The position numbers were made by a program, and so were the translations under genes. The notes under the pieces were generated by a model that worked only from the letters and a program-made list of their open reading frames with translations, ran no database searches and had not been told where the DNA came from. 64,000 bases of DNA from Bacillota bacterium (GTDB lineage: Bacteria > Bacillota > Dethiobacteria > DTU022), in assembly GCA_051748565.1 (NCBI GenBank), contig JBNJHN010000001.1, forward strand, positions 8,593 to 72,592, in the 5' to 3' direction. Each line of letters opens with the position of its first letter. Position 1 is the first letter of the stretch. This document shows, in pieces, positions 44,831 to 63,557 of the stretch.

Positions 44831-45922
44831 GTGAAAGGGGTTTTTAAAACTTTGAAGATACTGCACACATCCGATTTGCATTTAACAGAAAAGGCTTCTG
44901 AGCGCTGGGATGCGCTGGATGATATAGTAAAAATCGCTTCAAAACATCAGGTTTCAGCCCTGGTGATTGTCGGCGATCTTTTTGACCATAATGTAGAAGC
45001 GGATAAACTCAGGGCACGACTGCGTGCTATCTTTGGAGGTTCTGACTTTCAAACTATAATTCTTCCGGGTAACCACGATCATAAGGCTTATCGCAGTGGA
45101 CTTTACTTTGGAGAAAATGTATCTGTAATAACTACCTGGGAAGAGCCAATTAGCCTCGGGGAGGCTTTTATCTGGGGCCTTCCCTATGAAAGATTAAGCG
45201 GGGAAAGGCTTGTAAGCCGCCTGCGGAAGATAGCGGGGCTTATGCAACCTGAAAATATAAACTTTCTGCTTTTTCATGGTGAACTTCTGGATGCCTATTT
45301 TTCACGTAATGATTTAGGCGATGAAGGTGACCTGCGCTATATGCCTGTTAAGCTATCTTACTTTGAACCTTTACCCATACAATATGTATTAGCAGGGCAC
45401 TTTCATTCCCGCTATACCAGCTGGCAGTTACCGGGTGGCGGCTTGTTCATATATCCCGGATCTCCGGTAGCTGTAACCAGGCGGGAGACCGGCAGAAGGG
45501 TGGCAAACCTTGTTGAACCGGGTCAGGATCCTGTAGAAATACCGCTAAACACCCATCACTATGAGAAAGTGGTTATATCCCTTCATCCCTTCAATACAGA
45601 AGATCCGCTTTCAATGCTCGATCAAAAAATGCTAAAGATACATGCCAAATCAAAAGTTATCCTTACTGTGGAGGGCCTTTTCAATGGTTCAGTACTGGGT
45701 ATGGATGAAAGCGAATTGTCAGCAGAAATCAGGGCCCGGGTCGGTGATCGTTTCGGCGGCGAACCGGCCATGGAATTTTTCGATGTCCGTCATATCATTG
45801 AAGACGATCTCTTTCAGCAATTCCACGAGAAGTTGAAGCTGGCAGATTGCCCCAGTGAGCAAAAAGAGCAGGTTAAGCAATTGGTTGTCAGTGCTTTCAG
45901 GGTGGTGAAAGCATGTTCCTGA
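44831..45922 (+). CDS. SbcD/Mre11-like metallophosphoesterase (YhaO/SbcE-like DNA repair exonuclease)
   Basis: Calcineurin-like phosphoesterase motifs (LHTSDLHL, VIVGDLFDH, LPGNHDH, GHFH). GTG at 44831 or TTG at 44852 (MKILHTSDLHL). Confidence 0.75.
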   Translation: MKGVFKTLKILHTSDLHLTEKASERWDALDDIVKIASKHQVSALVIVGDLFDHNVEADKLRARLRAIFGGSDFQTIILPGNHDHKAYRSGLYFGENVSVITTWEEPISLGEAFIWGLPYERLSGERLVSRLRKIAGLMQPENINFLLFHGELLDAYFSRNDLGDEGDLRYMPVKLSYFEPLPIQYVLAGHFHSRYTSWQLPGGGLFIYPGSPVAVTRRETGRRVANLVEPGQDPVEIPLNTHHYEKVVISLHPFNTEDPLSMLDQKMLKIHAKSKVILTVEGLFNGSVLGMDESELSAEIRARVGDRFGGEPAMEFFDVRHIIEDDLFQQFHEKLKLADCPSEQKEQVKQLVVSAFRVVKACS

Positions 45923-48234
45923 AGGAATTTTTAATCAGCCGCTATGGGCCTCTACCTGACAGCGGCCTGAGGAAAACGGGTTCTTTCAACCTTTTTTTTG
46001 GCCTTAATGAGGAAGGTAAAACATTAACCATCGATGCCCTGCTCAAAATGCTTCTTGGTAAAGGAACGAAAAGGTTTAATGCCATCAAACGGGTTAATGA
46101 ATACCCAGAAGGTTACCTGATCATCGAGGACGGGAACCGCAGGGAGCTCAAACTACCTGAGGCCGGTACTGTTGAAGAACTCTTTGGCCTCAGCACCACC
46201 GAGTTTTCCAATATTTTCGTTATCCGTGACAGCGACTTGTCAATTAGTGAAGAGAACATTTTTTATCGGAATATTACCAATCGCCTGACCGGTCTCCGTT
46301 CTGGTGAAATAAATGAAATAAAAAACAGGATCTATGATCTGGCCGGGATTACTGCAGGCGGGGATTACCAGAACGTAGCTCCGGTAAAGCTTAAAGATAA
46401 GATTAAGAAAGCGCATTATTTGTCCGAGAGGGTTGATGAACTGCTCTCCAGGCTCCAGGAAGAAGGTTTCGTCCGTTTTGAAGAAGAGCTTGCCGGCCTG
46501 GAGGCCTTAAAACGCAATACTGAAGAAAAACTGAACCTTTTCCGTGCAGTTCAGAACCGGGAGCTGTATGAAAAAGGGATAGAAGCACTCGGAAAGTTGA
46601 AAAATGCTCTTCTAGAAACCGCAAAGTTAAAAGATCTAAACCAAGCAGACTATGATTCCTGGCAGCGGACCGAGTCAAGCCTGGCTTACTTCCATAGTGA
46701 CCTGAAGCGGCTCGAGGCAGAGATTGATCAACACAAACAAGTCTCGCAGGCGGCACGCACGGAATTGGAACAAATAAAAAGCACTTATAAAAAAGCCGAG
46801 TACAAAACAGCTCTGGTGTCAGAAAAAATTGAACCGTTAATATCTGGTTACCAGCAGGCAGTAATTGAATTTCAAAAAGAGGAAAAGTTGGCGGACTCAA
46901 CTTTTTATACCCGGACTGTTTTAGTATCAACATTTGTTTTTCTCCTGACGCTGTCTGGCCTGATTTTTCAACCTTCCTGGTGGCTTTTTACCCTGTTTGC
47001 TGTCTCATTTGCTTTAACTGTTTTACTGGGCGGTATCAAATACAGATTTTTGAAAAAGAAAGGCCGCCTGGCCGAAATTGAAACAGAGTTACTTTTTGAA
47101 ACCGGGCAGGCAGGATTGTCGGCAGACAATATTAAAGCGGTGGAGAAAAGTGTAAACCGTATTAAAAATGACCTGGCTGAGATTGCTGATCAGCTGAATG
47201 ATGCAGAAAAAGAAACTGAATGGCAGCAGAAAGAACAAGAACGCCTTGTTAGGGAGCGTGAAGAAAAACTGGGTAGGATTAAAGAAGCAAAATATCAGAT
47301 AGATCATATCCGGCATAAAACGGGTTTGGATGAAATTGAACAGTATAGAACAGTTTTAGCTGAAAAGGAAAGGCAGAAAAGCGAAGTCGAAAAACAGAAA
47401 AGCATTTTGAGCAGCCATTTCTTTCAGGGCGCCGGGTTATCTTCAGACGAAGCGCGGATTAAACTTTGGGAAGAACAGGTTGCAGCCATTGAGGAATACG
47501 CTGATGCTGCAGTGGGTTTGAAGTATGATCAGAAAGAAAATACAAATTTACTTGTTAAAAAGGAAGAGCTGGAACGCTTTATAAAAGCACTGAAAGAGAA
47601 GCTGCAGGAACGCAGTGATGAACTGCGCGATATAGAGAAAGATGTAAATGAGCTGCTCCATGGGAGTGAAGAAAGCAGTATACCCTGCCAGACTACAGTT
47701 GACCTCGAAGTTGTTCAACAAAAATTGGAGAAGTGGATTCAGTGTCACGAACAGAAGAAGGCAAACGCAGCTATAGCTCTGGAAATACTCAGCAGTATAG
47801 AACAGGAAGAAGAAGAAAAAGTAACCGCATTATTCGGTTCTGACAACCGGGTCAGCGAATACTTCAGACAGATTACCGGTGGGTGTTACCGGGAAGTATT
47901 TTTTGAAAGCCGGGAGAATTTGATCAGGGTAATTCGCTCCGATGGGACCGAACTTGATGCTTACCAGCTTTCAGGTGGAGCTTATGACCAGCTTTACTTT
48001 TCAATCCGGCTTGCTCTCGGTGAAAAATTGCTTGAGGGCAATAAAGGGTTTTTTATTCTGGATGACCCATTTGTCAAGGCAGATCCGGAAAGGTTAAAGC
48101 TCCTCCTGGACATGCTGATCGACATTAGTTCGAATGGTTGGCAAATTTTATATTTCAGCGCCAAAGGCGAAGTGAAATATGAATTACAGCATAAGATCGA
48201 TCAGCAAATAGTCAGGGAATTTAGGATATCCTGA
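45913..48234 (+). CDS. SbcC/Rad50-like AAA ATPase with central membrane hairpin (YhaN/SbcF-like)
   Basis: N-terminal Walker A (GLNEEGKT), long coiled coil interrupted by two hydrophobic helices (about residues 335-380, VLVSTFVFLLTLSGLIF...FTLFAVSFALTVLLGGI), C-terminal signature LSGGAYDQ plus Walker B FFILDDPF. The start overlaps the phosphoesterase gene. Confidence 0.7.
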   Translation: MFLKEFLISRYGPLPDSGLRKTGSFNLFFGLNEEGKTLTIDALLKMLLGKGTKRFNAIKRVNEYPEGYLIIEDGNRRELKLPEAGTVEELFGLSTTEFSNIFVIRDSDLSISEENIFYRNITNRLTGLRSGEINEIKNRIYDLAGITAGGDYQNVAPVKLKDKIKKAHYLSERVDELLSRLQEEGFVRFEEELAGLEALKRNTEEKLNLFRAVQNRELYEKGIEALGKLKNALLETAKLKDLNQADYDSWQRTESSLAYFHSDLKRLEAEIDQHKQVSQAARTELEQIKSTYKKAEYKTALVSEKIEPLISGYQQAVIEFQKEEKLADSTFYTRTVLVSTFVFLLTLSGLIFQPSWWLFTLFAVSFALTVLLGGIKYRFLKKKGRLAEIETELLFETGQAGLSADNIKAVEKSVNRIKNDLAEIADQLNDAEKETEWQQKEQERLVREREEKLGRIKEAKYQIDHIRHKTGLDEIEQYRTVLAEKERQKSEVEKQKSILSSHFFQGAGLSSDEARIKLWEEQVAAIEEYADAAVGLKYDQKENTNLLVKKEELERFIKALKEKLQERSDELRDIEKDVNELLHGSEESSIPCQTTVDLEVVQQKLEKWIQCHEQKKANAAIALEILSSIEQEEEEKVTALFGSDNRVSEYFRQITGGCYREVFFESRENLIRVIRSDGTELDAYQLSGGAYDQLYFSIRLALGEKLLEGNKGFFILDDPFVKADPERLKLLLDMLIDISSNGWQILYFSAKGEVKYELQHKIDQQIVREFRIS

Positions 48235-49874: not shown

Positions 49875-51299
49875 ATGATGAGTAAAGATCAGTCATTATT
49901 GCGTGAACTCCCAGCTGTCGACCGTCTGCTGCGCGAACCGGCTTTGGAAGCAATGCAGGAGTTTTTACCACGCCGCATCATTCTTAAGGCAGCCCAGGAT
50001 ATTATTGCTTCTTACCGAAACCATTTAACCGGTAATAATGATCAGAATAACAGAACCGGGGACATCGATCTTTCTCCTGCTGTTTTGGCCCGGGAAGTTG
50101 CAGCACTGGCAGAAAAAAATGCCGGATCAAACCTAAAATCATTAATTAATGCTACAGGAATTATCATCCACACCAATCTCGGCCGTGCGCCGCTGCCTGA
50201 ACCGGCAGTTAATGCTCTGAAAGAAATAGCGACAAACTATAACAATCTTGAATTATCGCTGGAGACCGGTAAACGCGGTTCGCGCCAGGAACACCTGGAA
50301 AACCTTCTCTGCGAGCTTAGCGGAGCCGAAGCGGCTATTGTTCTTAACAATAATGCAGCAGCAGTATTTATTGCCCTTAATACTATAGCCAAAGGCAGGG
50401 AGGTAGTAGTCTCCCGTGGTCAGCTGGTTGAAATCGGTGGCTCTTTCCGTATCCCCGAGATTATGGCCGCAAGTGGTGCACTTATGGTAGAGGTTGGGAC
50501 TACTAACAAAACTTACCTGCGCGATTACGAGGCAGTGGTTAACGAAAACACGGCGGCTTTTCTTAAAGTACACACCAGTAATTATCACATGATCGGTTTT
50601 ACTGCAGAAGTAAATACTGCCGATCTCTCTGAGATGGCTCATAAATACAACCTCCTGCTCATTGAAGATCTGGGCAGTGGTTTGTTTATTGATCCCAAAA
50701 AATATAACCTGCCTTCGGAACCGCAGGTTCAGGACAGTATTGCTGCCGGTGCCGATTTGGTTACCTTCAGTGGTGATAAAATGCTCGGTGGCCCCCAGTC
50801 CGGTATTATGCTCGGGCGCAAAGACCTTGTTTCTGATATTCGTACAAATCAGCTTGCCAGGACTTTGCGTGTTGATAAATTTTCAATTACCGCCCTGGAA
50901 GCGACCTTGCGCCTTTATCTCGACGAAGAAACGGCAATTCGTGAAATACCCGTATGGCGGATGCTTACCATGAAAAAAGAAACCATCAAAAAGCGGGCCT
51001 TGGCTCTGGCTAAACGCTTCGAAGAGATAATTGAAACCGGAAATGTTTTTACTGTCGAAGGTATTTCAAAAGTAGGCGGAGGTGCCCTGCCAATGGCAGA
51101 ACTGCCAACTCACCTGGTAGCAATTAATCTGCCTGAAGAGGGCCTTCACCCAACAAAACTGGTAGAAAGATTGCGCCGGGGTAATCCTCCGGTGATCCTC
51201 CGTCACCAGCAGGATACACTGCTCTTTGATCCCCGAACTATCTTCGAAGGCCAGGAGGATGCCTTAGTGGAAGCTGTCCGCCTGGCTTATTGTGAATAG
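49875..51299 (+). CDS. selA: L-seryl-tRNA(Sec) selenium transferase
   Basis: 474 aa SelA (PLP Lys region [11 protein letters not shown]). RBS AGAGG. Confidence 0.9.
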
Positions 51300-51321
51300 C
51301 AGCCCGAGGAGTGTCAACAAT

Positions 51322-53238
51322 TTGGAACAACTGATAATAGGTACAGCCGGCCATGTTGACCACGGGAAAACAGTATTGATCAAGGCGCTCACCGGTATTG
51401 ATACCGATCGACTGCAGGAGGAGAAAGAACGGGGCATATCAATCGACCTCGGTTTTGCTCCCTTCAGACTTCCCGGCGGAAGACTGGCAGGCGTTGTCGA
51501 TGTCCCCGGACACGAACGCTTCATTCACAACATGCTGGCCGGAGCAGCGGGCATGGATCTGGTGATGCTTGTAGTTGATGCAACCGAAGGTATCATGCCC
51601 CAGACCAGGGAGCACCTTGATATTCTGGAACTGCTTGGCACTCAAAAAGGTATTGTAGTTATTACGAAGATAGATCTGGTCGAAGAAGAATGGCGTGAAT
51701 TGGTTCGGGAGGAGATCAGAGAAGAACTTAAAGGGTCATTTCTGGAAGAAGCGCCGATTCATTCTGTTTCAGCAATAGAGGGCCGGGGAATTGAAGAATT
51801 AAAAGAGCTGATTGACCTTTTAACTGCTGATTTGGAAACGAGAAGTTTTTCCGGACCCCTGCGCCTGCCCGTAGACCGCTCTTTTGTGATTGCAGGTTTT
51901 GGGACTGTGGTTACGGGAACCCTCATCCAGGGATTCGTAAAAGTCGGCGATACAGTATCTGTAGTCCCTCCCGGCCTGGAAGCAAGGGTACGTAACATAC
52001 AGGTTCATGATGCTGACGTGAAAGAGGCAAAAGCGGGTTCCAGGGTAGCCCTGAACCTTTCAGGGCTTGAAAAAGGGCAGGTTTTAAGGGGCAGTGTAAT
52101 TAGCACCCCCGGTTATTATCGGCAGACCGATTTGATCGATGTCTCAGTAGAGCTGCTGAAACGTTCGCCGCGCCGCCTTAAAAATTTAGACCCGGTTCAT
52201 TTTTTCCTGGGCACTGCCCGTACTGTGGCCCGACTTTTATTGCTCGATAGTGAAGATCTGCGCCCCGGCCAAAACACTCTTGCGCAGTGCCGATTAGACA
52301 GACCCCTGGTAGCTGAACGGGGTGATTCCTTTGTGATCCGGTCTTATTCACCGATGACTACTATCGGCGGGGGAAAAGTACTGGATCCCTACCCCTCAAA
52401 ACATCGCCGTTTCCGCCCCCAGGTCATTGAGCGTCTCAATGAATTAAGGCAGGCTCCCACTGCCGGGGGAGATGCTGCATTTATTCGTCGGAAACTTGAA
52501 GAACTGGTTGCAGCCGATAGTAGTCGTTTGGCCAGGGAAACCCGTCTTGCTCCGGAAATAGTAAATTCCATTCTAGAAGAACTCTCTTCCGAGGGACTTG
52601 TGCAAAAAATTGGCGGCATTTTTATTGCTGCAGAGATTCTTAAAGAATATGAAGATAAATTATTAACGGAACTGGAAAAATTTCATCGAAAACTGCCTTT
52701 ATCTCCGGGGATTTCACGCGCGCGCTTAAAAGGAATTTTACCTTCCGCTTTCAGCCAGCGAGATTATGATGCCCTGCTTGGTAATCTGCAGGAAAAAGAA
52801 TTGGTTTTATCAAAAGGTGATCTGGTCTCTTTGTATCACTTTAAACCAGTACCTTCAGCCGAAGATAGAAAACTGCTGGACAGTTTAATCGAACTTTACA
52901 AGTCGGAAGGCTTTCAACCTCCGTCTGTAAAAGAGGCCATGGAGCAAGCGGGAGCAAATTATGCCCGCAAAGACGAACTTATAAACTACCTGCTTGCAGA
53001 AAGGGTTTTGGTTAAAATAAATGAAGAGCTCTATTTTCACAATGATATTTATAATGAAGCCCGGAATCTGCTCCTAAAACATTTTTCCGAAAACAAAACT
53101 CTTACCCTGGCCCAGTTCCGGGATATTACGGGCAGCTCTCGGAAATATGCCCAGGCATTACTCGAACACTTTGACCAGGCCAGATTAACCAGGCGTGTTG
53201 AAGACCACAGGGTAGCCTTAAAACTTAAAACTGATTGA
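51322..53238 (+). CDS. selB: Selenocysteine-specific translation elongation factor
   Basis: GTPase domain [21 protein letters not shown], plus C-terminal winged-helix SECIS-binding domains. Start chosen at the TTG after GAGGAG. The ORF start at 51292 (GTG) overlaps selA. Confidence 0.9.
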
Positions 53239-53288
53239 TCTATAAATATAAGTCCCGGAGCCCCGGAGACAGAAAGGATGGCGAGCCG

Positions 53289-54338
53289 ATGAGTCGTGAA
53301 GATATCCGCCTGACCAGTATGACCTCAAGCGCCGGCTGAGCGGCGAAAATCGGGCCTGAGGCCCTGGCGCAGGTGCTGCGTCGATTACCGGCTATTGAGG
53401 ATCCAAACTATTTGAACCGCGAGCAGCACTTTTCGGATGCAGGTATTTATCGTATCTCAGAAAAGCAAGCCCTGGTTCAGACTGTGGATTTCTTTACGCC
53501 CATAGTTGACGACCCTTACAAATTCGGGCAAATTGCTGCCGCCAATGCATTCAGCGATGTCTATGCCATTGGTGCAAAACCGCTTACTGCTTTAAATGTT
53601 ATTTGTTACCCGTTATCCTGTCACCCCCTGGAAGTGATGGAGGATATTCTGCGTGGTGGCTACGACAAGATTATTGAAGCTGGTGCGGTACTGGTTGGAG
53701 GCCACAGTATTGAAGATCCCGAACCCAAATACGGTCTATCTGTAACCGGTTTGGTTGATATTAATAAGATGGTCACCTCAGGTGGTGCAAAACCGGGTGA
53801 TTGCCTTATTCTGACCAAGCCGCTGGGCACAGGTATTATTGCCACCGCAGTAAAAGGTGAAATTATCACAGATCAAGATGCAGCAGTTGTAATCAATGGA
53901 ATGGCAGCTCTCAGTGCAGCACCTTCCAAAGCGATGGTGCAGATAGGTGTATCCGCCTGTACTGATGTGACAGGGTTTAGCCTGCTGGGACACCTGTATG
54001 AGATGCTAATTTCAAGTAATGTCGCTGCCGAAATAGAATATAGAAAAGTGCCTCTCTATCCTGAAGTTAAAGAGATGACTGCAATGGGAATGATTCCCGG
54101 TGGGGCCTACCGCAATCTTGAATATATACGACCACATTTATCCTGGAAAGGAAAAGCGGAGGATAAGGACGATACCCTGGTTATTCTTTCTGATCCGCAA
54201 ACTTCAGGAGGGCTTTTAATCGCCCTGCAAGAAGCAAAGCTGGAAGCTTATTTTTCTATCCTGAAAGAAAATAATATCGAAGGTTATCAAATCGGCCGAA
54301 TTACCAAGGGTCCTCCCGGCAGAATCGTTGTTGCCTGA
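53289..54338 (+). CDS. selD: Selenide, water dikinase (selenophosphate synthetase), selenocysteine-containing form with in-frame TGA at 53337-53339
   Basis: The ORF caller starts at 53373, but the frame continues upstream through TGA to an ATG at 53289 preceded by AAAGGA. This gives MSREDIRLTSMTSSAG-U-AAKIGPEALAQVL, which matches the SelD N-terminus GAGCGCK with Sec in place of the catalytic Cys and the conserved Lys retained. Confidence 0.8.
53352..53364 (+). promoter_or_regulatory. SECIS-like hairpin 12 nt downstream of the selD UGA
   Basis: GGGCC-TGA-GGCCC stem-loop with a G in the apical loop. Position and form are consistent with a bacterial SECIS. Confidence 0.35.
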
Positions 54339-54603
54339 ATTCAGGTTTTGCCAATTATTTTAAGGGTTAATAGTTGATTATGTTAAATATTTATGAATTT
54401 AAAGTTACAGGCAGGAAAAAATAAAGGAAATGTCGAAATTACTTAAGATAGTCCATTAATATCGCAATTGTCTGACAATAAAACCGGGTCAAGGGGGTGT
54501 GGTAGCAGCGGAGTAGTTATTTCGATTCCTCAGACGGTAAACGGGATTGTGTTTGCCGGGAGCATTGTGGAAAAATTATCACTTAATGATGCGGGGTATG
54601 CTA

Positions 54604-55740
54604 ATGAGTACCGAAATTCAGACTTTTACTGAAAAATATGATCTGCTGGGTTGTATTCAATGCGGTCGCTGTACCGGCGGTTGCCCGGTTACTGTGCGGG
54701 CAGATTTAAACGTACGTCAATTTGTAAATGATGCTTACAACGAAGAAAAGCTTGACGAGTTGGCCAGGCTGGCTGAAATTTGGGATTGCACAGCCTGTCA
54801 TACCTGTGCTGTTCGCTGTCCCAAGGGCTTAAAACCGCTTGAGGTTTTAATTGGCCTGCGATCGCTGATTGTCGAAAGTGGTAAAGTCGAACCGACTGTG
54901 CGAGATGCTTTGCAAAGTGTCCTTCTCGAAGGAAATCCCTGGGAAAAATCAAGAGCAGCCCGTTCTGATTGGATGGAAGGTCTTGATGTAAATATTGCTG
55001 AACCCGGGGTTCCTGTAGAAAACCTTTTTTTTGTTTGCTGTACGATTGCCTATGACCCCCGGGTCCAGACTATTGCCAAAAATATCGTCAGGCTTTTAAA
55101 CAAGGCCGGTGTTGACTATGCCTTTTTGCCGGAAGATGAAAGCTGCTGCGGCAGCGAGGTTTTCACTCTCGGTGAAGAGGGGCTTTTCGAAATGTTGGTT
55201 GAAGATAATACGGAATATTTGAATGAATTTTCCGCGAAGCGGATAGTGACTCTTTCGCCGCACTGCTTTACTACTTACAAAACCCATTACCCTGACCTTA
55301 AAGTGCCCGTTCTTCATTATACCCAGCTATTGGTTGAATTACTCAGGGAAGGAAAGCTTACCTGGAAAGGTGATCTCCAAAAAAGGATTGTCTACCATGA
55401 TCCCTGCTATTTGGGTAAGCAGGGTGATATTTATGATGAACCCCGGGAATTGTTAAAGAGTATTCCCGGAGCAGTGCTCGTAGAATTTGACCGCCGCCGT
55501 GAACGCAGTCTCTGTTGTGAAGGCGGTGGTGGAAAGATGTGGGTAGAATCAGAGTCTAAGAAGGAACGCCTGGCTGATACACGAATCAAGGATGCCAAAG
55601 CTCTCGATGCCGATATCGTAGCTGTTGCGTGTCCTTTCTGTGTATTAACACTGGAAGATTCATTGAAAGGTCTTGGTTTTGAGGAAGAAATGCGTGTAGC
55701 GGAAATAATGGAGCTTCTTGGCGAATATGTGGAGTCGTAA
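54604..55740 (+). CDS. HdrD-like (HdrB/HdrC-fusion type) iron-sulfur protein with two CCG cysteine-rich domains
   Basis: Two 4Fe-4S ferredoxin motifs (CIQCGRCTGGCP, CTACHTCAVRCP) followed by two CCG-type Cys clusters (CCGSEVF...HCF, CCEGGGG...CPFC). No TM segment. Start among clustered Met codons, taken as the ATG at 54604. Confidence 0.75.
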   Translation: MSTEIQTFTEKYDLLGCIQCGRCTGGCPVTVRADLNVRQFVNDAYNEEKLDELARLAEIWDCTACHTCAVRCPKGLKPLEVLIGLRSLIVESGKVEPTVRDALQSVLLEGNPWEKSRAARSDWMEGLDVNIAEPGVPVENLFFVCCTIAYDPRVQTIAKNIVRLLNKAGVDYAFLPEDESCCGSEVFTLGEEGLFEMLVEDNTEYLNEFSAKRIVTLSPHCFTTYKTHYPDLKVPVLHYTQLLVELLREGKLTWKGDLQKRIVYHDPCYLGKQGDIYDEPRELLKSIPGAVLVEFDRRRERSLCCEGGGGKMWVESESKKERLADTRIKDAKALDADIVAVACPFCVLTLEDSLKGLGFEEEMRVAEIMELLGEYVES

Positions 55741-55776
55741 GCAATTTTATATTATTGCAGGAGGTGGAATGAATAG

Positions 55777-56565
55777 ATGAAAACTTTAGTATGTATCAAG
55801 TATGTGCCCGATACTTCCGAGGCGGAAGTAAAACTAAATCCAGATGGCATCACGGTTGATGACAGCCGATTTTCATTTGACATCAACGATGCCGACAATT
55901 ATGCCGTTGAAGAATCAGTCTTGATTAAAGAAGCAAAGGGCGGTGAAATAACCGTTATTTCGATCGGGCCGAAAAAATCTGATGTGATGATTCGTATGGC
56001 TATGGCAAAGGGATGCGACCAGGCGGTTCGAGTCGAAGACGACCGTATTGCGATCCATGATCCGCTTATGGTGGCGAAAACACTTGCCGGTGCAATCAAA
56101 GGGCATGAATTCGATCTGGTGCTTACAGGTTGCATGGCTAATGATGATTGGCACATGTCGACCGGTGTAGCCCTGGCTGAAGAACTTGGTGTAAACCATG
56201 CCTCAATGGTCAATAATGTTGAAATTTTAGACGGTAAAGTCAAAGTTCATCGTGAATTGGAAGGTGGACTGTTAGAAGTAGTTGAACTTGAACTTCCTGC
56301 AGTCCTTACAATACAGACTGGTATCAACGAGCCTCGTTATGCCCCGATTCGCGGCATCCGCCAGGCTCAGAAGAAAGAACTTAATGTTGTCAGCTTGGAT
56401 GATATCGGTATAGATCCTGGGGAAGTTAATGCAGATGCTTCACAGGTAATCCTGGAAAAACTCTATATACCTGAAATTGAATCCAGTGCTGAATTTATCG
56501 AAGGTGAACCGGAGGAGAAGGCTGAAAAACTGGCGTCCATATTGCATAAGGGAGGCTTAGTATAA
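55777..56565 (+). CDS. etfB: Electron transfer flavoprotein beta subunit
   Basis: MKTLVCIKYVPDT N-terminus. RBS GGAGGTGG. Confidence 0.85.
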   Translation: MKTLVCIKYVPDTSEAEVKLNPDGITVDDSRFSFDINDADNYAVEESVLIKEAKGGEITVISIGPKKSDVMIRMAMAKGCDQAVRVEDDRIAIHDPLMVAKTLAGAIKGHEFDLVLTGCMANDDWHMSTGVALAEELGVNHASMVNNVEILDGKVKVHRELEGGLLEVVELELPAVLTIQTGINEPRYAPIRGIRQAQKKELNVVSLDDIGIDPGEVNADASQVILEKLYIPEIESSAEFIEGEPEEKAEKLASILHKGGLV

Positions 56566-57539
56566 TGGGTAACGTTTTAGTATTGGTAGAACACCGTCAG
56601 GGTGCATTGAGGGATGTTTCTTTTGAAATGATGGCAGTTGCTCCCGGAATTGCAGAAAGTATGGATGGCGAAGTCGTTGTGCTGCTTCTCGGCAGCGGAT
56701 TGGACGATATGGCCAAGAAGATGACTGGATATGGTGTCAAGGTTATGGTTGTCGATGATCCCGCTTTTGAGAATTTCAACGCCGAAAAATACCAGATGGC
56801 TCTGTCGGCCTTAATTGATGATCTTAAGCCTGCGGTCCTTATGACCGGTCACACGGCCCAGGGGGTCGATTTTATGCCTGCCCTCGCTGTGGAGAAAAAG
56901 CTGCCTCTGGTTGCCGATGCAGTCGGGTTGATTTATGAAGATGGGACTTTAAAAGCGACCCGCTCGCTTTACTCGGGCAAAGTAAATGCCATAGTTGCAT
57001 TTAAACCTGCAGATACTTACCTGGTTACTTTCAGGGAAGGCGCGGTAGAAGCGCCCGAGGCATCTGCTGCAGGTGAATTGGAGAAGATAGATTCCCCGCT
57101 GAAAGAAGATGTGCCTTATCGTAAGTTTGTTGAATATATTGAAGCAGAAGTCGGCGATGTCGATATTACCCAGTCCGATATACTGGTAGCTATAGGCCGC
57201 GGGCTGAAAGAAGATAAAAACCTTCCTGGGGTAGAAGAACTGGCTAAGGCAATAAAAGCTGACATAGCCGGTTCCAGGGCGGCGACAGATGCCGGTTGGA
57301 TTCCCCATGACCGTCAGGTCGGTACTTCCGGAAAATCGGTTAAACCGAAGCTCTATATTGCTATGGGTATATCGGGAGCATTCCAGCATTTGGCCGGAAT
57401 GAAAGGGGCTAAAACAATCGTAGCTATCAACAAAGATCCTGAAGCCCCGATATTCTCAGTGGCCGATTACGCTATTGTAGATGACATGTTCAAAGTTTTG
57501 CCCAAGTTAACTGAAAAGCTAAAAGAGCTCAAAGGATAA
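56565..57539 (+). CDS. etfA: Electron transfer flavoprotein alpha subunit
   Basis: 324 aa EtfA with FAD-binding C-terminal domain. TAATG overlap with etfB. Confidence 0.85.
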
Positions 57540-57571
57540 AACAGTATTAGAGGGCCAATCTTTGCGGGAGG

Positions 57572-59584
57572 ATGAAAAATCAGATGACGGAAAAACCAAA
57601 AATTGGCGTCTATGTCTGCCACTGTGGGATTAATATAGCTTCGACAGTAGATGTAGATGCAGTTTCAGAATATGCGCAAAATTTACCTAACGTAGAGGTA
57701 GCGCGCACCTATTCATATATGTGTTCCGATCCCGGACAGGTCCTGATCAAGAATGATATAAAGGAGCAAGGCTTAAACAGGATCGTTGTTGCTTCCTGTT
57801 CGCCCCGGATGCATGAACCGACTTTCAGGAAGGCGATTGCAGAAGCGGGCATAAATCCTTATTTCCTTGAGATGGCCAATGTTCGGGAACAGTGCTCATG
57901 GGTCCATGAAGAGATAGAAGAAGGAACAGCTAAGGCTAAAAAACTGGTTTCAGCTTCCGTGGCCAAGGTCAGGCTGCTTGAAGCGCTCGAAACAAAAGAA
58001 GTAGATGCCGAACCCTCTGCCCTGGTTATCGGGGCTGGTATTGCCGGTATTCAGGCATCTCTTGATATTGCCGATGCGGGGTTTAAGGTTTATCTTGTGG
58101 AAAAAACACCTTCAGTGGGCGGCCGGATGGCTCAGCTCGATAAGACCTTCCCCACTCTTGACTGCTCGGCCTGTATTCTTACCCCTAAGATGGTGGACGC
58201 CGCCAGTCATCCCAACATCGAGCTTTTGAGCTACTCTGAAGTTGAGGAAATCACCGGTTTTATCGGTAACTTTGATGTTAAAGTGCGCAAAAAAGCACGC
58301 TATGTTGATTTTGATAAATGTACAGGCTGTGGTGACTGTGCTGCGGAATGCCGTGTCAAAGACCGTATCCCAAGCGAGTTTGACCAGGGTATGGGTAAAC
58401 GTTCCGCTATTTACCTGCCTTTTCCACAGGCTGTGCCGGCCAAGTACACCATCGATCCCGAAAACTGCCTTTATCTCAGCAAGGGCAAATGTGGCAAGAG
58501 CCCGAAATGCCAGGATGTCTGCGGAGCAGGGGCGATAAACTTTGACCAGGAAGATGAAATAGTTGAATTTAAAGTCGGTGCGATTATTGTGGCAACAGGA
58601 TTTGATCCCTTTGATGCTTCACGCAAACCTGAATACGGTTATGACGATTATCCCAATGTAATCACAGGTATGGAGATGGAACGCCTTGTCTCTGCATCGG
58701 GACCGACCGGTGGTAAAGTTAAGATTTTTAACGGTGAAGAAGTAATTGAACCGAAAGAAATTGCTCTAATCAAATGTGTCGGTTCACGCGATCAAAGTGT
58801 TGGTAATGAGTATTGTTCAAGGGTTTGCTGTATGTATGTTGCCAAACAGGCTCACCTGCTCAGGGATAAAATGCCTGATGCCAACATAAGGATTTACTAT
58901 ATGGATGTGCGGGCTTTCGGTAAGGGTTTCGAAGAATTCTATGATCGGGTCCGCCGTGAAAATGTTCGCTACATCCGCGGAAACCCCTCTGAAATATTTA
59001 AGCGGGGCAATAAACTTGTGATTAAAGTCGAAGACACCCTGACTTCTACACCGCTTGAAGATGAAGTAGATATGGTCGTACTGGGGGTTGGCCTGGAACC
59101 GCGTGCTGATATGCGTCAAATTATGGATTTACTGCGACTTTCACAGTCCCCTGACCGTTTCTTCTTGGAGGCACACCCTAAACTTCGACCTGTGGATACT
59201 GCAACGGACGGTGTTTTTTTAGCCGGCTGCTGCCAGGGCCCGAAAGATATTCCCGATACCGTAGCCCAGGCCAAGGGCGCTGCCGCTTCGGCGATGATCC
59301 CGTTGGCCAGGGGCAAAGTGACAATCAATGCCCAGGTGGCTACGGTTAATGAAGCAACCTGCAGGGGCTGCAGCTTTTGCGTCAGCATTTGCCCCTATTC
59401 TGCTATTGAGATGGTTACTGTAAACCGTTTCGGCAACGAAGTGGAAGTTGCCAGGGTCAACGAGGCCCTTTGTAAGGGCTGTGGTTCATGCTCAGCTGCC
59501 TGTCTCTCCGATTCAATTCAGCCGAAGTCATTCCGCGACAGCCAGATCTTACCACAGATTGCGGCATTGGGGGTCATGAAATGA
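57572..59584 (+). CDS. hdrA: Heterodisulfide reductase subunit A-like flavoprotein
   Basis: N-terminal Cys cluster (VCHCGINIAS), FAD-binding GAGIAGIQAS, inserted ferredoxin domain (CTGCGDCAAEC...CQDVCGAG) and two C-terminal 4Fe-4S motifs (CRGCSFCVSICP, CKGCGSCSAACL). Alternative start at the ATG 57584. Confidence 0.85.
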   Translation: MKNQMTEKPKIGVYVCHCGINIASTVDVDAVSEYAQNLPNVEVARTYSYMCSDPGQVLIKNDIKEQGLNRIVVASCSPRMHEPTFRKAIAEAGINPYFLEMANVREQCSWVHEEIEEGTAKAKKLVSASVAKVRLLEALETKEVDAEPSALVIGAGIAGIQASLDIADAGFKVYLVEKTPSVGGRMAQLDKTFPTLDCSACILTPKMVDAASHPNIELLSYSEVEEITGFIGNFDVKVRKKARYVDFDKCTGCGDCAAECRVKDRIPSEFDQGMGKRSAIYLPFPQAVPAKYTIDPENCLYLSKGKCGKSPKCQDVCGAGAINFDQEDEIVEFKVGAIIVATGFDPFDASRKPEYGYDDYPNVITGMEMERLVSASGPTGGKVKIFNGEEVIEPKEIALIKCVGSRDQSVGNEYCSRVCCMYVAKQAHLLRDKMPDANIRIYYMDVRAFGKGFEEFYDRVRRENVRYIRGNPSEIFKRGNKLVIKVEDTLTSTPLEDEVDMVVLGVGLEPRADMRQIMDLLRLSQSPDRFFLEAHPKLRPVDTATDGVFLAGCCQGPKDIPDTVAQAKGAAASAMIPLARGKVTINAQVATVNEATCRGCSFCVSICPYSAIEMVTVNRFGNEVEVARVNEALCKGCGSCSAACLSDSIQPKSFRDSQILPQIAALGVMK

Positions 59585-60012
59585 GCGCAAACTTTGAACC
59601 TAACATTGTAGCTTTTCTATGTAACTGGTGCTCCTATGCCGGAGCCGATCTTGCAGGCACCAGCCGGGTGCATTACCCGGCAAACCTACAGATTATACGG
59701 GTAATGTGTTCGGGGCGGGTTAATCCACTCTATGTCATGAATGCCCTGCAGCAGGGTGCTGATGGAGTGCTGGTTTCAGGTTGTCATCCCGGAGATTGCC
59801 ACTACATGGAAGGCAACTACTATGCCAGGCGCCGGCTTGGTATGTTAAAAGACCTGATGGAATTTGTCGGTGTCGATCCAAAACGCTTTCACATGAGCTG
59901 GGTATCTGCCTCCGAGGGGCATAAGTGGAAAGAAGTGGTGGAAAAAACCGTTGAAGATGCACGAGAAGCCGGACCGTTTGAAGGGTTCAGGCGTCGTCAG
60001 ATCGATTGGTAG
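59581..60012 (+). CDS. mvhD: MvhD/FlxD-like methyl-viologen-reducing hydrogenase delta subunit homolog
   Basis: About 143 aa with the MvhD Cys pattern (CNWCSYAGADLAG...CSGRVNP...SGCHPGDCHY). ATGA overlap with hdrA. Confidence 0.8.
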   Translation: MSANFEPNIVAFLCNWCSYAGADLAGTSRVHYPANLQIIRVMCSGRVNPLYVMNALQQGADGVLVSGCHPGDCHYMEGNYYARRRLGMLKDLMEFVGVDPKRFHMSWVSASEGHKWKEVVEKTVEDAREAGPFEGFRRRQIDW

Positions 60013-60026
60013 GAGGGGTTTTATAG

Positions 60027-61007
60027 ATGGATCTGGAACAATTACGAAAAACTGCGGCTGAAGTAGCGGCCCGTGATGATGTTAAGTACCTGATCGGTTG
60101 GAAAAAAGGTTCTTACGGCTACAGGGTTGCCCCGGGCTTTATCGAAGATGCCGCCGGTGCTGCAGAGCTGATCTTTTCACCCCTTTGCACCGCTAACCTG
60201 GCTACATACCTGACACTGGTAGAAAAACTTCCCGTTCCGCGTGGTCAGGAAGCCGACAACCGCAAGGTTGCCTTAATGGTCAAAGGATGTGACAGCCGGG
60301 CAGTAACCCAACTCCTGGTTGAAAAGGGAATTCACCGTGACGAAGTACTCATTATCGGATGTCCTTGTCCGGGTGTTGTTGACCCGGACCTGCTGGCTGA
60401 AAAATTTCCGGAAACTGAAGAATCAGTGGAAATGAAGTGGAATGGGGATGGATTTCTTCTGGTTCGGGACGGAGAAGAAACCAAAATAGCCAGGGAAGAT
60501 CTGCTGGCTGAAAAATGCCGGTTATGCCGTTATCCAAACCCGGTAATTAGTGATATCATGCTTGGCGATCCGGTTGAAACCTGGGAACCGGCAGAAGATA
60601 AAGGTGTGACAGAAATCGAAGGCAAAGATGTGGACGAACGCGCGGCCTACTGGGAAGAGCAATTCGAGAAATGTGTACGCTGTTACAGCTGTCGTAATGT
60701 TTGTCCGCTCTGTTATTGTCAGGACTGTATCCTCGATCGTCTTAACCCGACCTGGGTTAACCGGGCGGTCAACTTTTCCGAGAATACAGCTTTTAATATT
60801 GCCCGGGCCTTTCACCTTGCCGGCCGTTGTATTGAGTGCGGTGAATGCGAGCGTGTCTGCCCGGCAAATATTCCCCTGGGTAAGTTAAATCGCAAACTGG
60901 CCCGGGAAGTGCGGGATAAATACGATTTTGAGCCCGGGTTAGACCCCGAGGCCGAACCGTTCCAGGCCAGCTTTAAGCCTGATGATCCCGAGGACTTCAT
61001 ACTTTAG
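60027..61007 (+). CDS. Iron-sulfur cluster-binding protein (FlxC/HydB/AsrA-like ferredoxin-type subunit)
   Basis: Multiple Cys clusters (CPCPG, CRLCRYPNP, CVRCYSCRNVCPLCYC, CIECGECERVCP). RBS GGAGGGG. Confidence 0.55.
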   Translation: MDLEQLRKTAAEVAARDDVKYLIGWKKGSYGYRVAPGFIEDAAGAAELIFSPLCTANLATYLTLVEKLPVPRGQEADNRKVALMVKGCDSRAVTQLLVEKGIHRDEVLIIGCPCPGVVDPDLLAEKFPETEESVEMKWNGDGFLLVRDGEETKIAREDLLAEKCRLCRYPNPVISDIMLGDPVETWEPAEDKGVTEIEGKDVDERAAYWEEQFEKCVRCYSCRNVCPLCYCQDCILDRLNPTWVNRAVNFSENTAFNIARAFHLAGRCIECGECERVCPANIPLGKLNRKLAREVRDKYDFEPGLDPEAEPFQASFKPDDPEDFIL

Positions 61008-61018
61008 AGGTGGGTGAT

Positions 61019-62032
61019 ATGTCAGCGATGCTGTTGAATAAAGAAAAATGGCCTGATTTTGTCGGAAAGTTGGCCGGTAAAAAGCTCTTGGCCCCGCAAT
61101 CAGAAGGCGATGTGATAAGTTTTGATCCTGTAGCCGAAGGGGCAATACCTTCCTTCGACTTCAACAACACCAGGGTGCCGCCCAAAGAAATCTTGTTTCC
61201 CCAGACTGAAACGATGTATCGTTTTCATCTGGGCTCAGAAGAAGTGGATGAGCCTCAGCTTGATGAAGAGATTGTGCTCCTGGGCGTGCGGCCATGTGAT
61301 GCCAGGGCTATGACTATTGTAGAGAAGTTATTTAAGTGGGATATTGACGATCCATACTATGTCAGAAGACGGGAATTAGTGACCCTGGTAGGTTTAGCCT
61401 GTGGTGATCCCGGTTTAAATTGTTTTTGTACCTCGGTTGAAGGCGGTCCTGCGACTACCGAAGGGCTTGATATTTTGATGACCGATCTGGGGGATAACTA
61501 TCTGCTGGAAGCTGTAACTGAAAAAGGCGAAGCACTGCTGGCCGAAGCGAAAGATTTGCTTGATGAAGCAGGTGATGATGCAATTAAGGAAAAGGGAAAA
61601 CTTGTGGATGCAGCCGAGAAGAAAATCAAGCGAAAAGTAAAAACTGAAGGTATTCCTGAAGGGCTGCCGGGTTTATGGGAAAATCCGCTCTGGCAAAATG
61701 TTTCGGCTTCCTGTCTCGGTTGTGGAACCTGTACCTATCTGTGCCCCACCTGCCATTGCTTTGATATCCAGGATGAGACGGAAGGTTTTGAAAGCAGACG
61801 CTGTCGCATGTGGGATTCATGTATGTTTGAAGAATATACAATGCACACCTCGGGACATAACCCACGTCCCACCCGCCGGGAACGGACCCGGAATCGGATC
61901 AACCATAAATACAGTTACTATGTCGATAAATTTGATGTGATTGCCTGCGTCGGGTGTGGCAGATGTATCAATCTCTGTCCCGTTAATATAGACATTGTTG
62001 AAATCCTTAGGCAGGTGGAGGAGGCGCTATGA
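61019..62032 (+). CDS. 4Fe-4S dicluster protein, anaerobic sulfite reductase subunit A / sulfhydrogenase beta (FlxB)-like
   Basis: Two CxxCxxCxxxCP motifs (CLGCGTCTYLCPTC, CVGCGRCINLCP). ATG after GAGGTGGGTG. Confidence 0.6.
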   Translation: MSAMLLNKEKWPDFVGKLAGKKLLAPQSEGDVISFDPVAEGAIPSFDFNNTRVPPKEILFPQTETMYRFHLGSEEVDEPQLDEEIVLLGVRPCDARAMTIVEKLFKWDIDDPYYVRRRELVTLVGLACGDPGLNCFCTSVEGGPATTEGLDILMTDLGDNYLLEAVTEKGEALLAEAKDLLDEAGDDAIKEKGKLVDAAEKKIKRKVKTEGIPEGLPGLWENPLWQNVSASCLGCGTCTYLCPTCHCFDIQDETEGFESRRCRMWDSCMFEEYTMHTSGHNPRPTRRERTRNRINHKYSYYVDKFDVIACVGCGRCINLCPVNIDIVEILRQVEEAL

Positions 62033-62877
62033 AAACCAACAATAACCCCTATATACCTTATACAGCAACTGTAGAAGAAGCCTGGTTTGAAACCGGTGGA
62101 GAGCGCTGCATAAAAACTTTCAAAGTCGTTTTTGACGATGAAGAAGTTCGTGAAAACTGGAGCCATAGTCCTGGCCAGTGTGCCATGATCGGAATACTTG
62201 GTGTCGGCGAAAGTATGATTTCGATTTCATCCTCCCCCACCGAGGGCAAGTTCCTCCGTTTCTCGGTCATGCGCATGGGCAAGGTAACCCAGGCTTTACA
62301 CCAACTGGAACCTGGAGACAAGATGATGGTGCGAGGGCCATACGGGAACAGTTTTCCGATCGATGATTGGGAGGGGAAGAAGATCCTTACCATCGGTGGT
62401 GGTATTGGACAAGCCCCCCTGCGTCCGATTATCGAATATGTTAAGGCTAAACGTGATAAATTTGAGGAACTAACAATGATTTATGGCGCCCGTACTTCAG
62501 GTGATCTCTGTTTCAAAGTAGAATTCGAGGAGATGAGCAAATGTGACGACCTTTCCTGCCACCTTACTATAGATGTTGAAGAAGAGGATTGGAGTCATAA
62601 TGTGGGTTTTGTACCCCAGATGCTGCTGGATTTAAACCCCTCGCCTGAGAATACCATAGCGATCACCTGTGGCCCGCCGATTATGATTCGCTTTGTTTTG
62701 GAGAATCTGAAAAAGCTGGGCTTTGCCGACGAGCAAATTTACACCACTTTGGAAAACAGGATGAAATGCGGCATTGGCAAATGTGGTCGCTGTAATGCCG
62801 GTAGTATGTATGTCTGTAAAGACGGCCCTGTATTTAGTTACGACGTCCTTAAAGAGATACCGGAGGCTTTTGCTTAA
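62029..62877 (+). CDS. FAD/NAD(P)-binding oxidoreductase with C-terminal 2Fe-2S (AsrB/HydG/PyrK/FlxA-like)
   Basis: FNR-like fold (RFSVMR, GGGIGQAPL) and C-terminal CGIGKCGRC cluster. Overlaps the upstream gene stop. Confidence 0.7.
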   Translation: MKTNNNPYIPYTATVEEAWFETGGERCIKTFKVVFDDEEVRENWSHSPGQCAMIGILGVGESMISISSSPTEGKFLRFSVMRMGKVTQALHQLEPGDKMMVRGPYGNSFPIDDWEGKKILTIGGGIGQAPLRPIIEYVKAKRDKFEELTMIYGARTSGDLCFKVEFEEMSKCDDLSCHLTIDVEEEDWSHNVGFVPQMLLDLNPSPENTIAITCGPPIMIRFVLENLKKLGFADEQIYTTLENRMKCGIGKCGRCNAGSMYVCKDGPVFSYDVLKEIPEAFA

Positions 62878-63065
62878 TATTAATATTGGGTGAACCTGTT
62901 TAATTGCTTGTTAAATATCAAATGCTTTTTATATAATCCAGGAGGCACTGCCACCCCTTAAAGGGCAGTGTCTCTTAGTTATTCATCATAATCCTTCAGG
63001 TTTATCACTTGTTACAGTTGCCTTCTTATGCTAAGATTTACTTAACTTTTCTGAAGGAGTCCAGC

Positions 63066-63557
63066 ATGGAACAATACGGAGTGATCACCGAAACAAGAGG
63101 CGAAATCGCAGCAGTAAATATACAGCGCCATTTAATCTGCGGAGAATGTGGTAAATGCGGTATCCTAAGTGGTTCGGGCAAACGCAGTATAGTTATTGAA
63201 GCTCATAACCCTATTCAAGCCGAAAAGGGTCAAAGGGTAGTTTTAGAATCAGACGATCGCCAGGTTATATTTCTGGCTTTTATGCTCTACATTGTACCAC
63301 TAATTGGGCTTGTAGCCGGTATTATTGCCTGGCTGCAGCTGGCAGGCTTCATTGGTTTTGATGGAAACCAGGAATTGCAGGCCGTGGGAGCAGGATTTGT
63401 TTTGATGGTTTTAGTTTTCCTGGTTATCCGTCTTTGGGATCGCAGGGTTAAAGATGATCCTAAATATAAACCGGTTATTACCGGATTTCTATTGGATAAA
63501 TTCGGGTGTGATGATGATTTGCCTCAAGCAAAACTGGATAATCAGGAGGAGATTTAG
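63066..63557 (+). CDS. RseC/MucC-family (SoxR-reducing system) protein
   Basis: N-terminal soluble domain with CGECGKCG, two C-terminal TM helices. ATG after AAGGAG. Confidence 0.6.
   Translation: MEQYGVITETRGEIAAVNIQRHLICGECGKCGILSGSGKRSIVIEAHNPIQAEKGQRVVLESDDRQVIFLAFMLYIVPLIGLVAGIIAWLQLAGFIGFDGNQELQAVGAGFVLMVLVFLVIRLWDRRVKDDPKYKPVITGFLLDKFGCDDDLPQAKLDNQEEI

Follow-up and report, generated by a model that had tools for sequence, protein, structure and literature searches.

Eight genes at positions 54604 to 62877 of a 64,000-nucleotide stretch of DNA from a Bacillota bacterium (the window, meaning the whole stretch that was analyzed) appear to encode one soluble flavin-based electron-bifurcating or electron-confurcating complex that is centered on HdrA and has an electron transfer flavoprotein (ETF) on its high-potential branch. 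We put the probability of this reading at roughly 0.55, on the basis of gene content, homologies, residue signatures, conservation, and linkage across phyla. The operon is real and strongly conserved, and it is probably a soluble route from the oxidation or reduction of fatty acyl-CoA to NAD(P)H and ferredoxin that dispenses with quinones. A first-pass annotation of the same DNA had proposed a single soluble Etf-HdrA-Flx complex. Sequence comparisons support that proposal: none of the outcomes that it listed as contradicting it was observed, and the pairing of a CCG-type Fe-S protein with ETF co-occurs with HdrA across phyla in rearranged gene orders.

All eight open reading frames were recovered on the plus strand in the open reading frame list of the window, at the positions first assigned to them. 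They are co-directional and as tightly packed as initially described, with gaps (in order) of 36, -1, 32, -4, 14, 2, and -4 nucleotides. The start of etfA overlaps the stop of etfB by 1 nucleotide, hdrA and mvhD share a 4-nucleotide ATGA overlap, and motifs resembling GGAGG Shine-Dalgarno sequences precede most of the starts. Pfam and NCBIfam bore out the proposed composition of a CCG protein, EtfB, EtfA, HdrA, MvhD/FlxD, two Fe-S proteins, and an FNR-type flavoprotein. The first gene (54604 to 55740) encodes the CCG protein, a soluble Fe-S protein that fuses HdrC and HdrB types ("HdrD-like"). It has two Pfam CCG domains (E value of 1e-32) and a Fer4 match with two 4Fe-4S motifs. Because ATGATGCGGGGTATGCTAATG is conserved, its start may instead be at 54586. 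Next are EtfB of the nonbifurcating W3A1-like type (55777 to 56565; Pfam ETF, 4e-37), EtfA, the alpha-FAD subunit (56565 to 57539; Pfam ETF, 3e-34, and ETF_alpha, 3e-33), full-length HdrA (57572 to 59584; NCBIfam HdrA2, 4e-268), and the [2Fe-2S] connector MvhD/FlxD (59581 to 60012; Pfam FlpD positions 1 to 122 of 123, 9e-54). The last three genes encode a FlxC-like Fe-S protein (60027 to 61007; Fer4 motifs and a weak FrhB_FdhB_C match in Pfam), a FlxB-like Fe-S protein of the sulfhydrogenase beta/AsrA family (61010 to 62032; Pfam Fer4_22, 3e-33, and NCBIfam ShyB/HydB/AsrA models, 1e-64), and a FlxA-like FAD/NAD(P)H oxidoreductase of the sulfhydrogenase gamma/AsrB family that has a [2Fe-2S] site (62029 to 62877; NAD_binding_1 and DHODB_Fe-S_bind, with HydG/AsrB models at 7e-76).

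A hydrophobic stretch of transmembrane grade is absent from all eight proteins (maximum Kyte-Doolittle 19-residue mean of at most 1.62, versus 2.58 for the RseC-like protein encoded downstream). The 378-amino-acid CCG protein has no transmembrane segment, as had been noted. No other hdrB or hdrC was found in the window, nor was one found in the 42 related loci, which leaves the fused CCG protein as the sole HdrBC equivalent. There are no hydrogenase genes at the cluster, where the Flx module fills the position of MvhAG. Neither the open reading frame list nor Pfam revealed a cognate dehydrogenase gene between 54.3 and 63.0 kb. A standard LctBCD or CarCDE system beside an independent Flx-Hdr system, which the first-pass annotation had named as the competing arrangement, was not found: the cluster has no neighboring dehydrogenase of the LctD or CarC type, its EtfB belongs to neither the Lct nor the Car type, and separate hdrB and hdrC are lacking.

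The CCG protein is a fusion of an HdrC-like domain and an HdrB-like noncubane cluster (NCB) domain, in agreement with its initial description, but it is nearer to the ETF-oxidizing proteins EtfD and EMO (ETF:(methyl)menaquinone oxidoreductase) than to HdrB. Its best match in the PDB was Mycobacterium smegmatis EtfD (9OJN; 178 bits, residues 59 to 371 against residues 409 to 737 of the 1,042-amino-acid EtfD), compared with 55 bits for HdrC and only about 20 bits for HdrB. An AlphaFold2 model had a mean confidence score (pLDDT) of 69, with values above 80 in the NCB domain and about 40 in the N-terminal ferredoxin domain; the latter domain was therefore left uninterpreted. The top Foldseek match of this model was again EtfD 9OJN (E value of 8.6e-18), followed by LutA (2.8e-10) and HdrB (about 5e-7).

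Two recent structural studies of EMO have concluded that the noncubane clusters pass on electrons from ETF and do not catalyze and that the ligands of the distal cluster vary; at the proximal cluster, they report, a histidine (H583 in the M. smegmatis EMO and H534 in the Syntrophus aciditrophicus EMO) fills the coenzyme M (CoM) site. His220 of the window CCG protein, which pairs with H583 of 9OJN in the alignment, was invariant in 73 family members. The motif at this histidine is SPHC in the window protein, CPHC in the M. smegmatis EMO, and CNGC in HdrB. Across the same 73 proteins, 8 + 9 cysteines were conserved, and both CX2CX2CX3CP motifs and all cubane ligands were invariant. The positions that varied were the cysteine neighboring the histidine, which can be Ala or Gly, and the first cysteine of "VCC," which can be Gly. 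Because of the EMO-type histidine, the nearness to EtfD in sequence and fold, and the invariant cubane ligands, the CCG protein has the hallmarks of an EtfD/EMO-like NCB module for docking ETF, one that lacks the heme-b membrane domain.

The ETF is most likely an ordinary carrier of the nonbifurcating type, with one FAD. EtfB matched the ETF-beta of the AMP-containing, nonbifurcating W3A1 ETF of Methylophilus methylotrophus (1O94_C) at 182 bits, compared with the lower scores for the bifurcating types CarD (117 bits), Clostridioides difficile 5OL2_B (100 bits), Acidaminococcus fermentans 4KPU_B (86 bits), and LctB (79 bits). The beta-FAD signature of bifurcating EtfB, in the definition attributed to Garcia Costas and coworkers in 2017, is said to be G-R/K-Q-A-x-D-G-D-T-x-Q-V-G together with NPxD. 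The first-pass annotation had singled out the bifurcating-type EtfB signature as a feature to look for, and it is not present: the window EtfB reads GCMANDDWHMSTG and DINDAD. Its motif DLVLTGCMANDDWHMSTG stands where CarD has DLVLAGRQAIDGDTAQVG, and DINDAD replaces NPxD (NPDD in CarD). The window protein resembles instead the W3A1 counterparts, AGVQSSDQAYASTG and DLNEWD. The R/K-Q pair is missing from the whole EtfB family, distant members included. EtfA scored 204 bits to 5OL2_A and 194 bits to W3A1 alpha, and it does not have the N-terminal ferredoxin domain that is present in CarE and LctC. Since EtfB does not carry the bifurcating signature, any bifurcation would sit on HdrA, and a bifurcating flavin outside the ETF makes sense for such a W3A1-like EtfB.

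HdrA is a full-length protein of the bifurcating type, and we propose that it provides the bifurcating flavin site. It matched the crystallized bifurcating HdrA of Methanothermococcus thermolithotrophicus (5ODC_A) at 832 bits over residues 7 to 664, with the N-terminal Fe-S cluster, FAD, inserted ferredoxin, and C-terminal ferredoxin domains all present. The DCSxCIL stretch beside the flavin and the cluster cysteine motifs are conserved relative to 5ODC_A, so the FAD and cysteine pattern to which attention had been drawn is there. FlxB and FlxA matched the beta and gamma subunits of Pyrococcus sulfhydrogenase I (9NEZ_B, 170 bits, and 9NEZ_C, 226 bits), and this pair corresponds to the NAD(P)H:Fe-S module of that enzyme. 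The FlxC-like position was kept in 42 of 42 related genomes.

From these comparisons we infer a scheme for complex formation, the path and direction of electron flow, and the substrate. FlxA, with its FAD and NAD(P)H site, would exchange mid-potential electrons with the HdrA flavin together with FlxB, FlxC, and MvhD, a module that would stand in for the Mvh hydrogenase of methanogens. The ferredoxin domains of HdrA would form the low-potential branch to ferredoxin, and the fused HdrC-like and NCB (CCG) domains would form the high-potential branch. This branch would dock the alpha-FAD of the nonbifurcating EtfAB in the manner of EtfD/EMO, and no heterodisulfide would be reduced. The ETF would in turn serve an ETF-dependent dehydrogenase, most likely one for acyl-CoA, with its gene elsewhere in the genome. 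The net reaction would be 2 NAD(P)H + Fd(ox) + ETF(ox) (then enoyl-CoA) <-> 2 NAD(P)+ + Fd(red) + ETF(red) (from acyl-CoA), where Fd is ferredoxin. This stoichiometry would equal that of Bcd-EtfAB, with the bifurcating flavin on HdrA instead.

The genes of the cluster are also found together in other lineages, in other orders and with other partners. In Dehalococcoidales and in a Spirochaetota metagenome-assembled genome (MAG) the order is EtfB-EtfA-acyl-CoA dehydrogenase-CCG-HdrA, the dehydrogenase being a 389-amino-acid protein identified by Pfam. An Actinomycetota MAG keeps CCG-EtfBA-HdrA, and "Candidatus Methanolliviera" and a MAG labeled "Halobacteria" have CCG-EtfBA-short HdrA-HdrC-HdrB (loci L077 to L079). 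A metagenome scan seeded with distant CCG members yielded 80 further loci. An acyl-CoA dehydrogenase gene was directly upstream of the CCG gene in 27 of the 55 that had enough sequence, and 14 of 40 had a divergent HdrA-MvhD-EtfB-EtfA-acyl-CoA dehydrogenase operon upstream. Among the 21 loci that had at least 3 kb on both sides, 20 encoded HdrA or a NuoF-type protein within 8 kb, and not one of the 21 was without all partners. Acyl-CoA dehydrogenase is thus a recurrent partner of CCG-ETF in other lineages. Such recombination of partners across lineages is a stronger argument for a functional unit than synteny within a clade.

Two of the metagenome loci illustrate the range of contexts. In locus L096 (6086 to 19286) the order is thiolase, 3-hydroxyacyl-CoA dehydrogenase, acyl-CoA dehydrogenase, CCG, NuoE, NuoF, an 870-amino-acid molybdopterin/NuoG-like protein, EtfB, EtfA, and a further acyl-CoA dehydrogenase. 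This operon unites beta-oxidation genes with a Bfu-type module and may be a Bfu-type counterpart of the HdrA system. Loci L092, L098, L102, L113, and L127 also have the NuoE/NuoF/NuoG-like variant in place of HdrA. Locus L088 has an acyl-CoA dehydrogenase, then CCG-EtfB-EtfA-HdrA-MvhD-FlxC-FlxB-FlxA in the exact order of the window, and then a subunit of a 2-oxoacid:ferredoxin oxidoreductase. This context suggests a balanced scheme, in which the 2-oxoacid oxidoreductase would yield one Fd(red) and the acyl-CoA, the acyl-CoA dehydrogenase would yield one ETF(red), and the two together would reduce two NAD(P)+. More broadly, and more tentatively than for the window cluster itself, the CCG protein and the W3A1-type ETF could be a portable high-potential adaptor that links acyl-CoA oxidation or reduction either to an HdrA-MvhD core (with Flx or HdrBC) or to a NuoEF-type Bfu core (with a molybdopterin/formate dehydrogenase-like subunit).

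Conservation among close relatives was evaluated in a scan of one genome per species, which found 128 CCG relatives. The closest came from uncultured MAGs labeled "Syntrophomonadaceae," Bacillota, Dethiobacter, and Dethiobacteria, recovered from soda-lake sediments and anaerobic digesters. Dethiobacter, a culturable carrier, has the cluster (locus L051). Exact-sequence look-ups of the CCG and EtfB proteins of the window had no match on record. The complete-cluster set comprised the 42 loci with a CCG protein at least 69% identical and enough downstream DNA. All 42 had the eight genes, etfBA included, in the order of the window with similarly short gaps, and 24 of 24 shorter contigs agreed as far as they reached. 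The conservation of gene order, raised in the first-pass annotation as a matter to check, is therefore complete among these species-level genomes. Identities are higher for the proteins of the cluster than for those encoded next to it. For example, locus L005 has identities of 90% for CCG, 90% for HdrA, and 96% for MvhD versus 63% for SelA; RseC is 55% identical in locus L012; and MvhD is 91 to 97% identical among close relatives. Two loci labeled Desulfovibrio or Desulfovibrionaceae (L055 and L058) show the full Bacillota-type selAB-cluster synteny and are probably misbinned.

Several observations weigh against the proposed complex. Synteny in the clade extends to unrelated neighboring genes (selABD, rseC, and asd), and conservation within the clade therefore indicates only vertical descent. 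One relative (L001, 10001 to 12024; GCA_900198705.1, on a 3.3-Mb contig) has a 70%-identical CCG gene, after which come only a fragment of EtfB (71% identical) that was left uncalled and then a gene of the URO-D family; this appears to be a decayed cluster. No ETF-dependent dehydrogenase adjoins the cluster in the window or in the close relatives. The sole acyl-CoA dehydrogenase gene of the window (34219 to 35472), which had been suggested at the outset (as the gene at 34234) as a source of electrons for Etf, lies 19 kb away between an Nnr/YjeF NAD(P)HX repair fusion and a homoserine dehydrogenase. It is unsupported as a partner, since this context is unrelated to beta-oxidation and its product is 32% identical to the operon-linked acyl-CoA dehydrogenases. 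The CCG protein scored 179 bits against TfrB, equal to its EtfD score, and it retains ten cysteines in the NCB domain, as many as the catalytic HdrB; a thiol/disulfide substrate is therefore possible. The energetics are a further concern. Textbook standard potentials are -320 mV for NAD, about -450 mV for ferredoxin, and about -10 mV for enoyl-CoA, and the standard-state direction would be NADH oxidation. The oxidative direction would be unfavorable at standard state (a mean of about -230 mV for enoyl-CoA and ferredoxin versus -320 mV for NAD), and operation in this confurcating direction would depend on reduced ferredoxin and on a low ratio of NADH to NAD.

The alternative that survives best keeps the same architecture but has the ETF of this clade serve a dehydrogenase other than an acyl-CoA dehydrogenase, acting on an amine, lactate, or glycolate or at a methyl-branch step of the Wood-Ljungdahl pathway in syntrophic acetate oxidizers. 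We consider it rather unlikely. It would accommodate the missing acyl-CoA dehydrogenase genes beside the cluster in the window and in about 60 close relatives, and the nearest solved ETF is that of W3A1, the partner of which is trimethylamine dehydrogenase. Relatives of the window genome have also been described as candidate syntrophic acetate oxidizers with the Wood-Ljungdahl pathway. However, every dehydrogenase that adjoins the module in other lineages is an acyl-CoA dehydrogenase, and a related Dethiobacteria MAG has been reported to have a complete beta-oxidation pathway.

More doubtful still is an ordinary Flx-Hdr system connecting NAD(P)H, ferredoxin, and a disulfide, with the CCG protein as a true disulfide reductase for some thiol carrier and the ETF as an optional second donor or acceptor. 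The flxDCBA-hdrA-mvhD part of the cluster does fit the published description of Flx-Hdr, and the HdrB-like set of ten cysteines and the match to the thiol-using TfrB at 179 bits are as this explanation would have them. However, the invariant histidine stands where a histidine closes off the CoM site of EMO, and EtfD is nearer than HdrB in both sequence (178 versus about 20 bits) and predicted fold (Foldseek E values of 8.6e-18 versus about 5e-7). Furthermore, etfBA accompanies the CCG gene in every one of the 42 complete clusters, and the neighbors of the module elsewhere are acyl-CoA dehydrogenase and beta-oxidation genes, not genes for thiol carriers. Least likely of the three is that the operon holds two independent systems, a soluble ETF:CCG oxidoreductase with another acceptor and an HdrA-MvhD-FlxCBA NAD(P)H:ferredoxin enzyme with no high-potential branch, because, although promoter and terminator scans were uninformative and the synteny of the clade takes in unrelated genes, HdrA by its known mechanism needs a high-potential branch to bifurcate, the contact with HdrA in solved complexes is made by the HdrC-like domain, which the CCG protein has, and an HdrA or NuoF-type module stands beside CCG-ETF in many different orders in 20 of 21 well-flanked metagenome loci.

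The 265-nucleotide intergenic region upstream of the CCG gene is AT rich. Alignment of 17 upstream regions revealed a conserved noncoding block (54368 to 54438, plus strand) about 160 to 230 nucleotides before the first start, which is a candidate promoter or operator. Given its distance from the start, either the leader would be long or the operator distal. The block contains the imperfect palindrome ATGTTAAATATTTATGAA (54380 to 54397), which resembles Rex or CRP/FNR operators; a Rex-like pattern at 15 of 18 positions occurred in 17 of 57 loci versus about 2% of shuffles. Consensus scans of the window for promoters and terminators gave counts no higher than shuffled sequence, and an Rfam search of 53 to 64 kb had no match. 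A 9-bp hairpin (GGCACTGCC...GGCAGTGTC, 62944 to 62972, plus strand), read from the sequence 67 nucleotides after the flxA stop, has a weak T-tract and is a possible end of the operon; the consensus terminator scan did not call it. A promoter-like TTGTTA-18-TATAAT sequence (62908 to 62937) is in the same flxA-rseC gap. As first reported, a gene for an RseC-like protein lies directly downstream (63066 to 63557, 188 nucleotides after the operon). This RseC/MucC-family protein has a CxxCxxC motif and a strong hydrophobic segment; its gene is downstream at variable distance in the clade and is absent from distant relatives.

The first-pass annotation placed the cluster downstream of Sec machinery. 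The upstream genes are indeed selA, selB, and selD (49875 to 54338), directly adjacent to the cluster, but they function in selenocysteine synthesis and not in protein secretion. About 50 related genomes keep this adjacency. The idea that a cluster gene encodes a selenoprotein was considered because tblastn gave in-frame stops in HdrA of four relatives, and was rejected, as these were TAA or TAG codons upstream of the real starts. No in-frame TGA was found in the cluster genes of any relative. An ARAGORN scan of the 64-kb window detected no tRNA and hence no selC. With no selenocysteine codon in the cluster genes, the adjacency of selABD looks like plain synteny. SelD (53289 to 54338) is itself a selenoprotein: after the true ATG at 53289 there is an in-frame TGA at 53337 to 53339 (codon 17, SSAG-U-AAK), which is why the mechanical open reading frame list starts SelD at 53373.

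The first 1 to 50 kb of the window contains only housekeeping genes, with no beta-oxidation or Wood-Ljungdahl genes. A 530-amino-acid open reading frame at 12978 to 14570 matches RNase H (residues 5 to 143) and phosphofructokinase (residues 174 to 477), and represents either an unusual fusion or a pair of genes that the open reading frame caller ran together. At 44831 to 48234 a Metallophos phosphoesterase (363 amino acids) is followed by an overlapping 773-amino-acid open reading frame with no Pfam match; the two, which could be an SbcCD-like nuclease pair, are kept together in loci L002 and L003.

Anaerobes that dehydrogenate acyl-CoA must dispose of electrons at high potential, a problem that is central to their energetics and that arises in the syntrophic degradation of fatty acids and amino acids and in alkane-fed methanogenesis. 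The established solutions are a membrane EMO/EtfD with reverse electron transport and bifurcating Bcd-EtfAB run in reverse. If the proposed complex exists, a soluble ETF-CCG-HdrA-Flx enzyme would be a third solution, needing neither quinones nor membrane potential. HdrA-based bifurcating enzymes would gain ETF as a new high-potential partner, and NCB domains could act as ETF docking wires in soluble enzymes. If the adaptor proposal also held, it would give anaerobes a soluble, quinone-independent means of reoxidizing ETF by confurcation with reduced ferredoxin, in Dethiobacteria-like Bacillota, Dehalococcoidales, Spirochaetota, and the alkane-degrading Methanolliviera. Where the acyl-CoA comes from a 2-oxoacid:ferredoxin oxidoreductase, the adaptor scheme would be stoichiometrically self-sufficient, with one Fd(red) and one ETF(red) giving two NAD(P)H. 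The clade in which the cluster is highly conserved is widespread and lives in soda lakes and anaerobic digesters, relatives of the cluster occur in Dehalococcoidales of sediments and in Methanolliviera, and the system could bear on carbon flow there. The cluster is directly testable because every component is soluble.

The window cluster shares individual parts with several known systems. The MvhAGD-HdrABC complex of methanogens (5ODC) shares a full-length HdrA (832 bits), MvhD, and HdrC-like and HdrB-like domains. It differs in that the window cluster has no [NiFe] hydrogenase, fuses HdrB and HdrC, and has the EMO-type histidine instead of the HdrB CNGC. We know of no CoM/CoB chemistry in bacteria. 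Bcd-EtfAB, CarCDE, and LctBCD share the proposed net reaction of NADH, ferredoxin, and enoyl-CoA and the use of ETF with an acyl-CoA dehydrogenase. In contrast to those systems, the window EtfB does not have the GRQAxDGDTxQVG-type motif, no dehydrogenase is fused or adjacent, and the bifurcating flavin would be on HdrA. The cognate dehydrogenase that accompanies etfAB is missing in the window but present in the distant relatives that carry acyl-CoA dehydrogenase genes.

FlxABCD-HdrABC (Hdr-Flox), found in Desulfovibrio vulgaris and many anaerobes and proposed to carry out NADH-dependent bifurcation at HdrA, shares with the window an operon of HdrA, an MvhD-like FlxD, two Fe-S proteins, and an FNR-type FAD/NAD(P)H subunit. 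The likeness of the window Flx proteins was set by family matches and the published description of Flx-Hdr. In the window one fused 378-amino-acid CCG protein of EtfD/EMO lineage replaces HdrB and HdrC, etfBA sits between the CCG gene and hdrA, and the proposed high-potential partner is ETF, not a disulfide such as that of DsrC. EtfD/EMO (M. smegmatis 9OJN and S. aciditrophicus) shares with the window CCG protein the HdrC-like two-cubane and NCB domains, the histidine next to the last cysteine of the first CCG motif, the variable ligands of the distal cluster, and adjacency to etfAB. Unlike EtfD/EMO, the window protein has no N-terminal heme-b membrane domain or quinone site (378 amino acids; maximum Kyte-Doolittle mean of 1.62), its first CCG motif, CC...CCG...SPHC, is unlike that of both characterized EMOs, and its electron sink or source would be HdrA, not menaquinone. 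Oxidation of ETF by the CCG protein is proposed from the adjacency of etfBA and the CCG gene in every related locus and from the analogy with EMO.

The first-pass annotation held that this composition is not a textbook system, and the literature agrees: published Flx-Hdr clusters have separate HdrABC and no ETF, and the published ETF partners among CCG proteins are the membrane types HdrF, EMO, and EtfD. The NCB clades distinguished in an August 2026 preprint on EMO (EMO, HdrDE, archaeal Sdh, TfrB, HdrB, BamD, GlcF, D-iLDH, and GlpC) include no soluble clade linked to ETF or HdrA. A full-text literature search for names that combine the two systems, among them Etf-Hdr and HdrABC-EtfAB, had no match, although earlier mention in key reviews is possible. 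Two papers note related associations in one sentence each, with no analysis: one describes the ETF of "Ca. Methanoliparia," together with an Fe-S oxidoreductase, as "associated with the hdr operon," and the other places etfAB beside hydB-hdrAC in candidate phylum NPL-UPA2. The archaeal form differs from the window cluster in having a short HdrA with separate HdrBC and no Flx module. The window cluster thus combines two known kinds of enzyme, HdrA-based bifurcating complexes and ETF:NCB oxidoreductases, in a combination that is conserved and uncharacterized.

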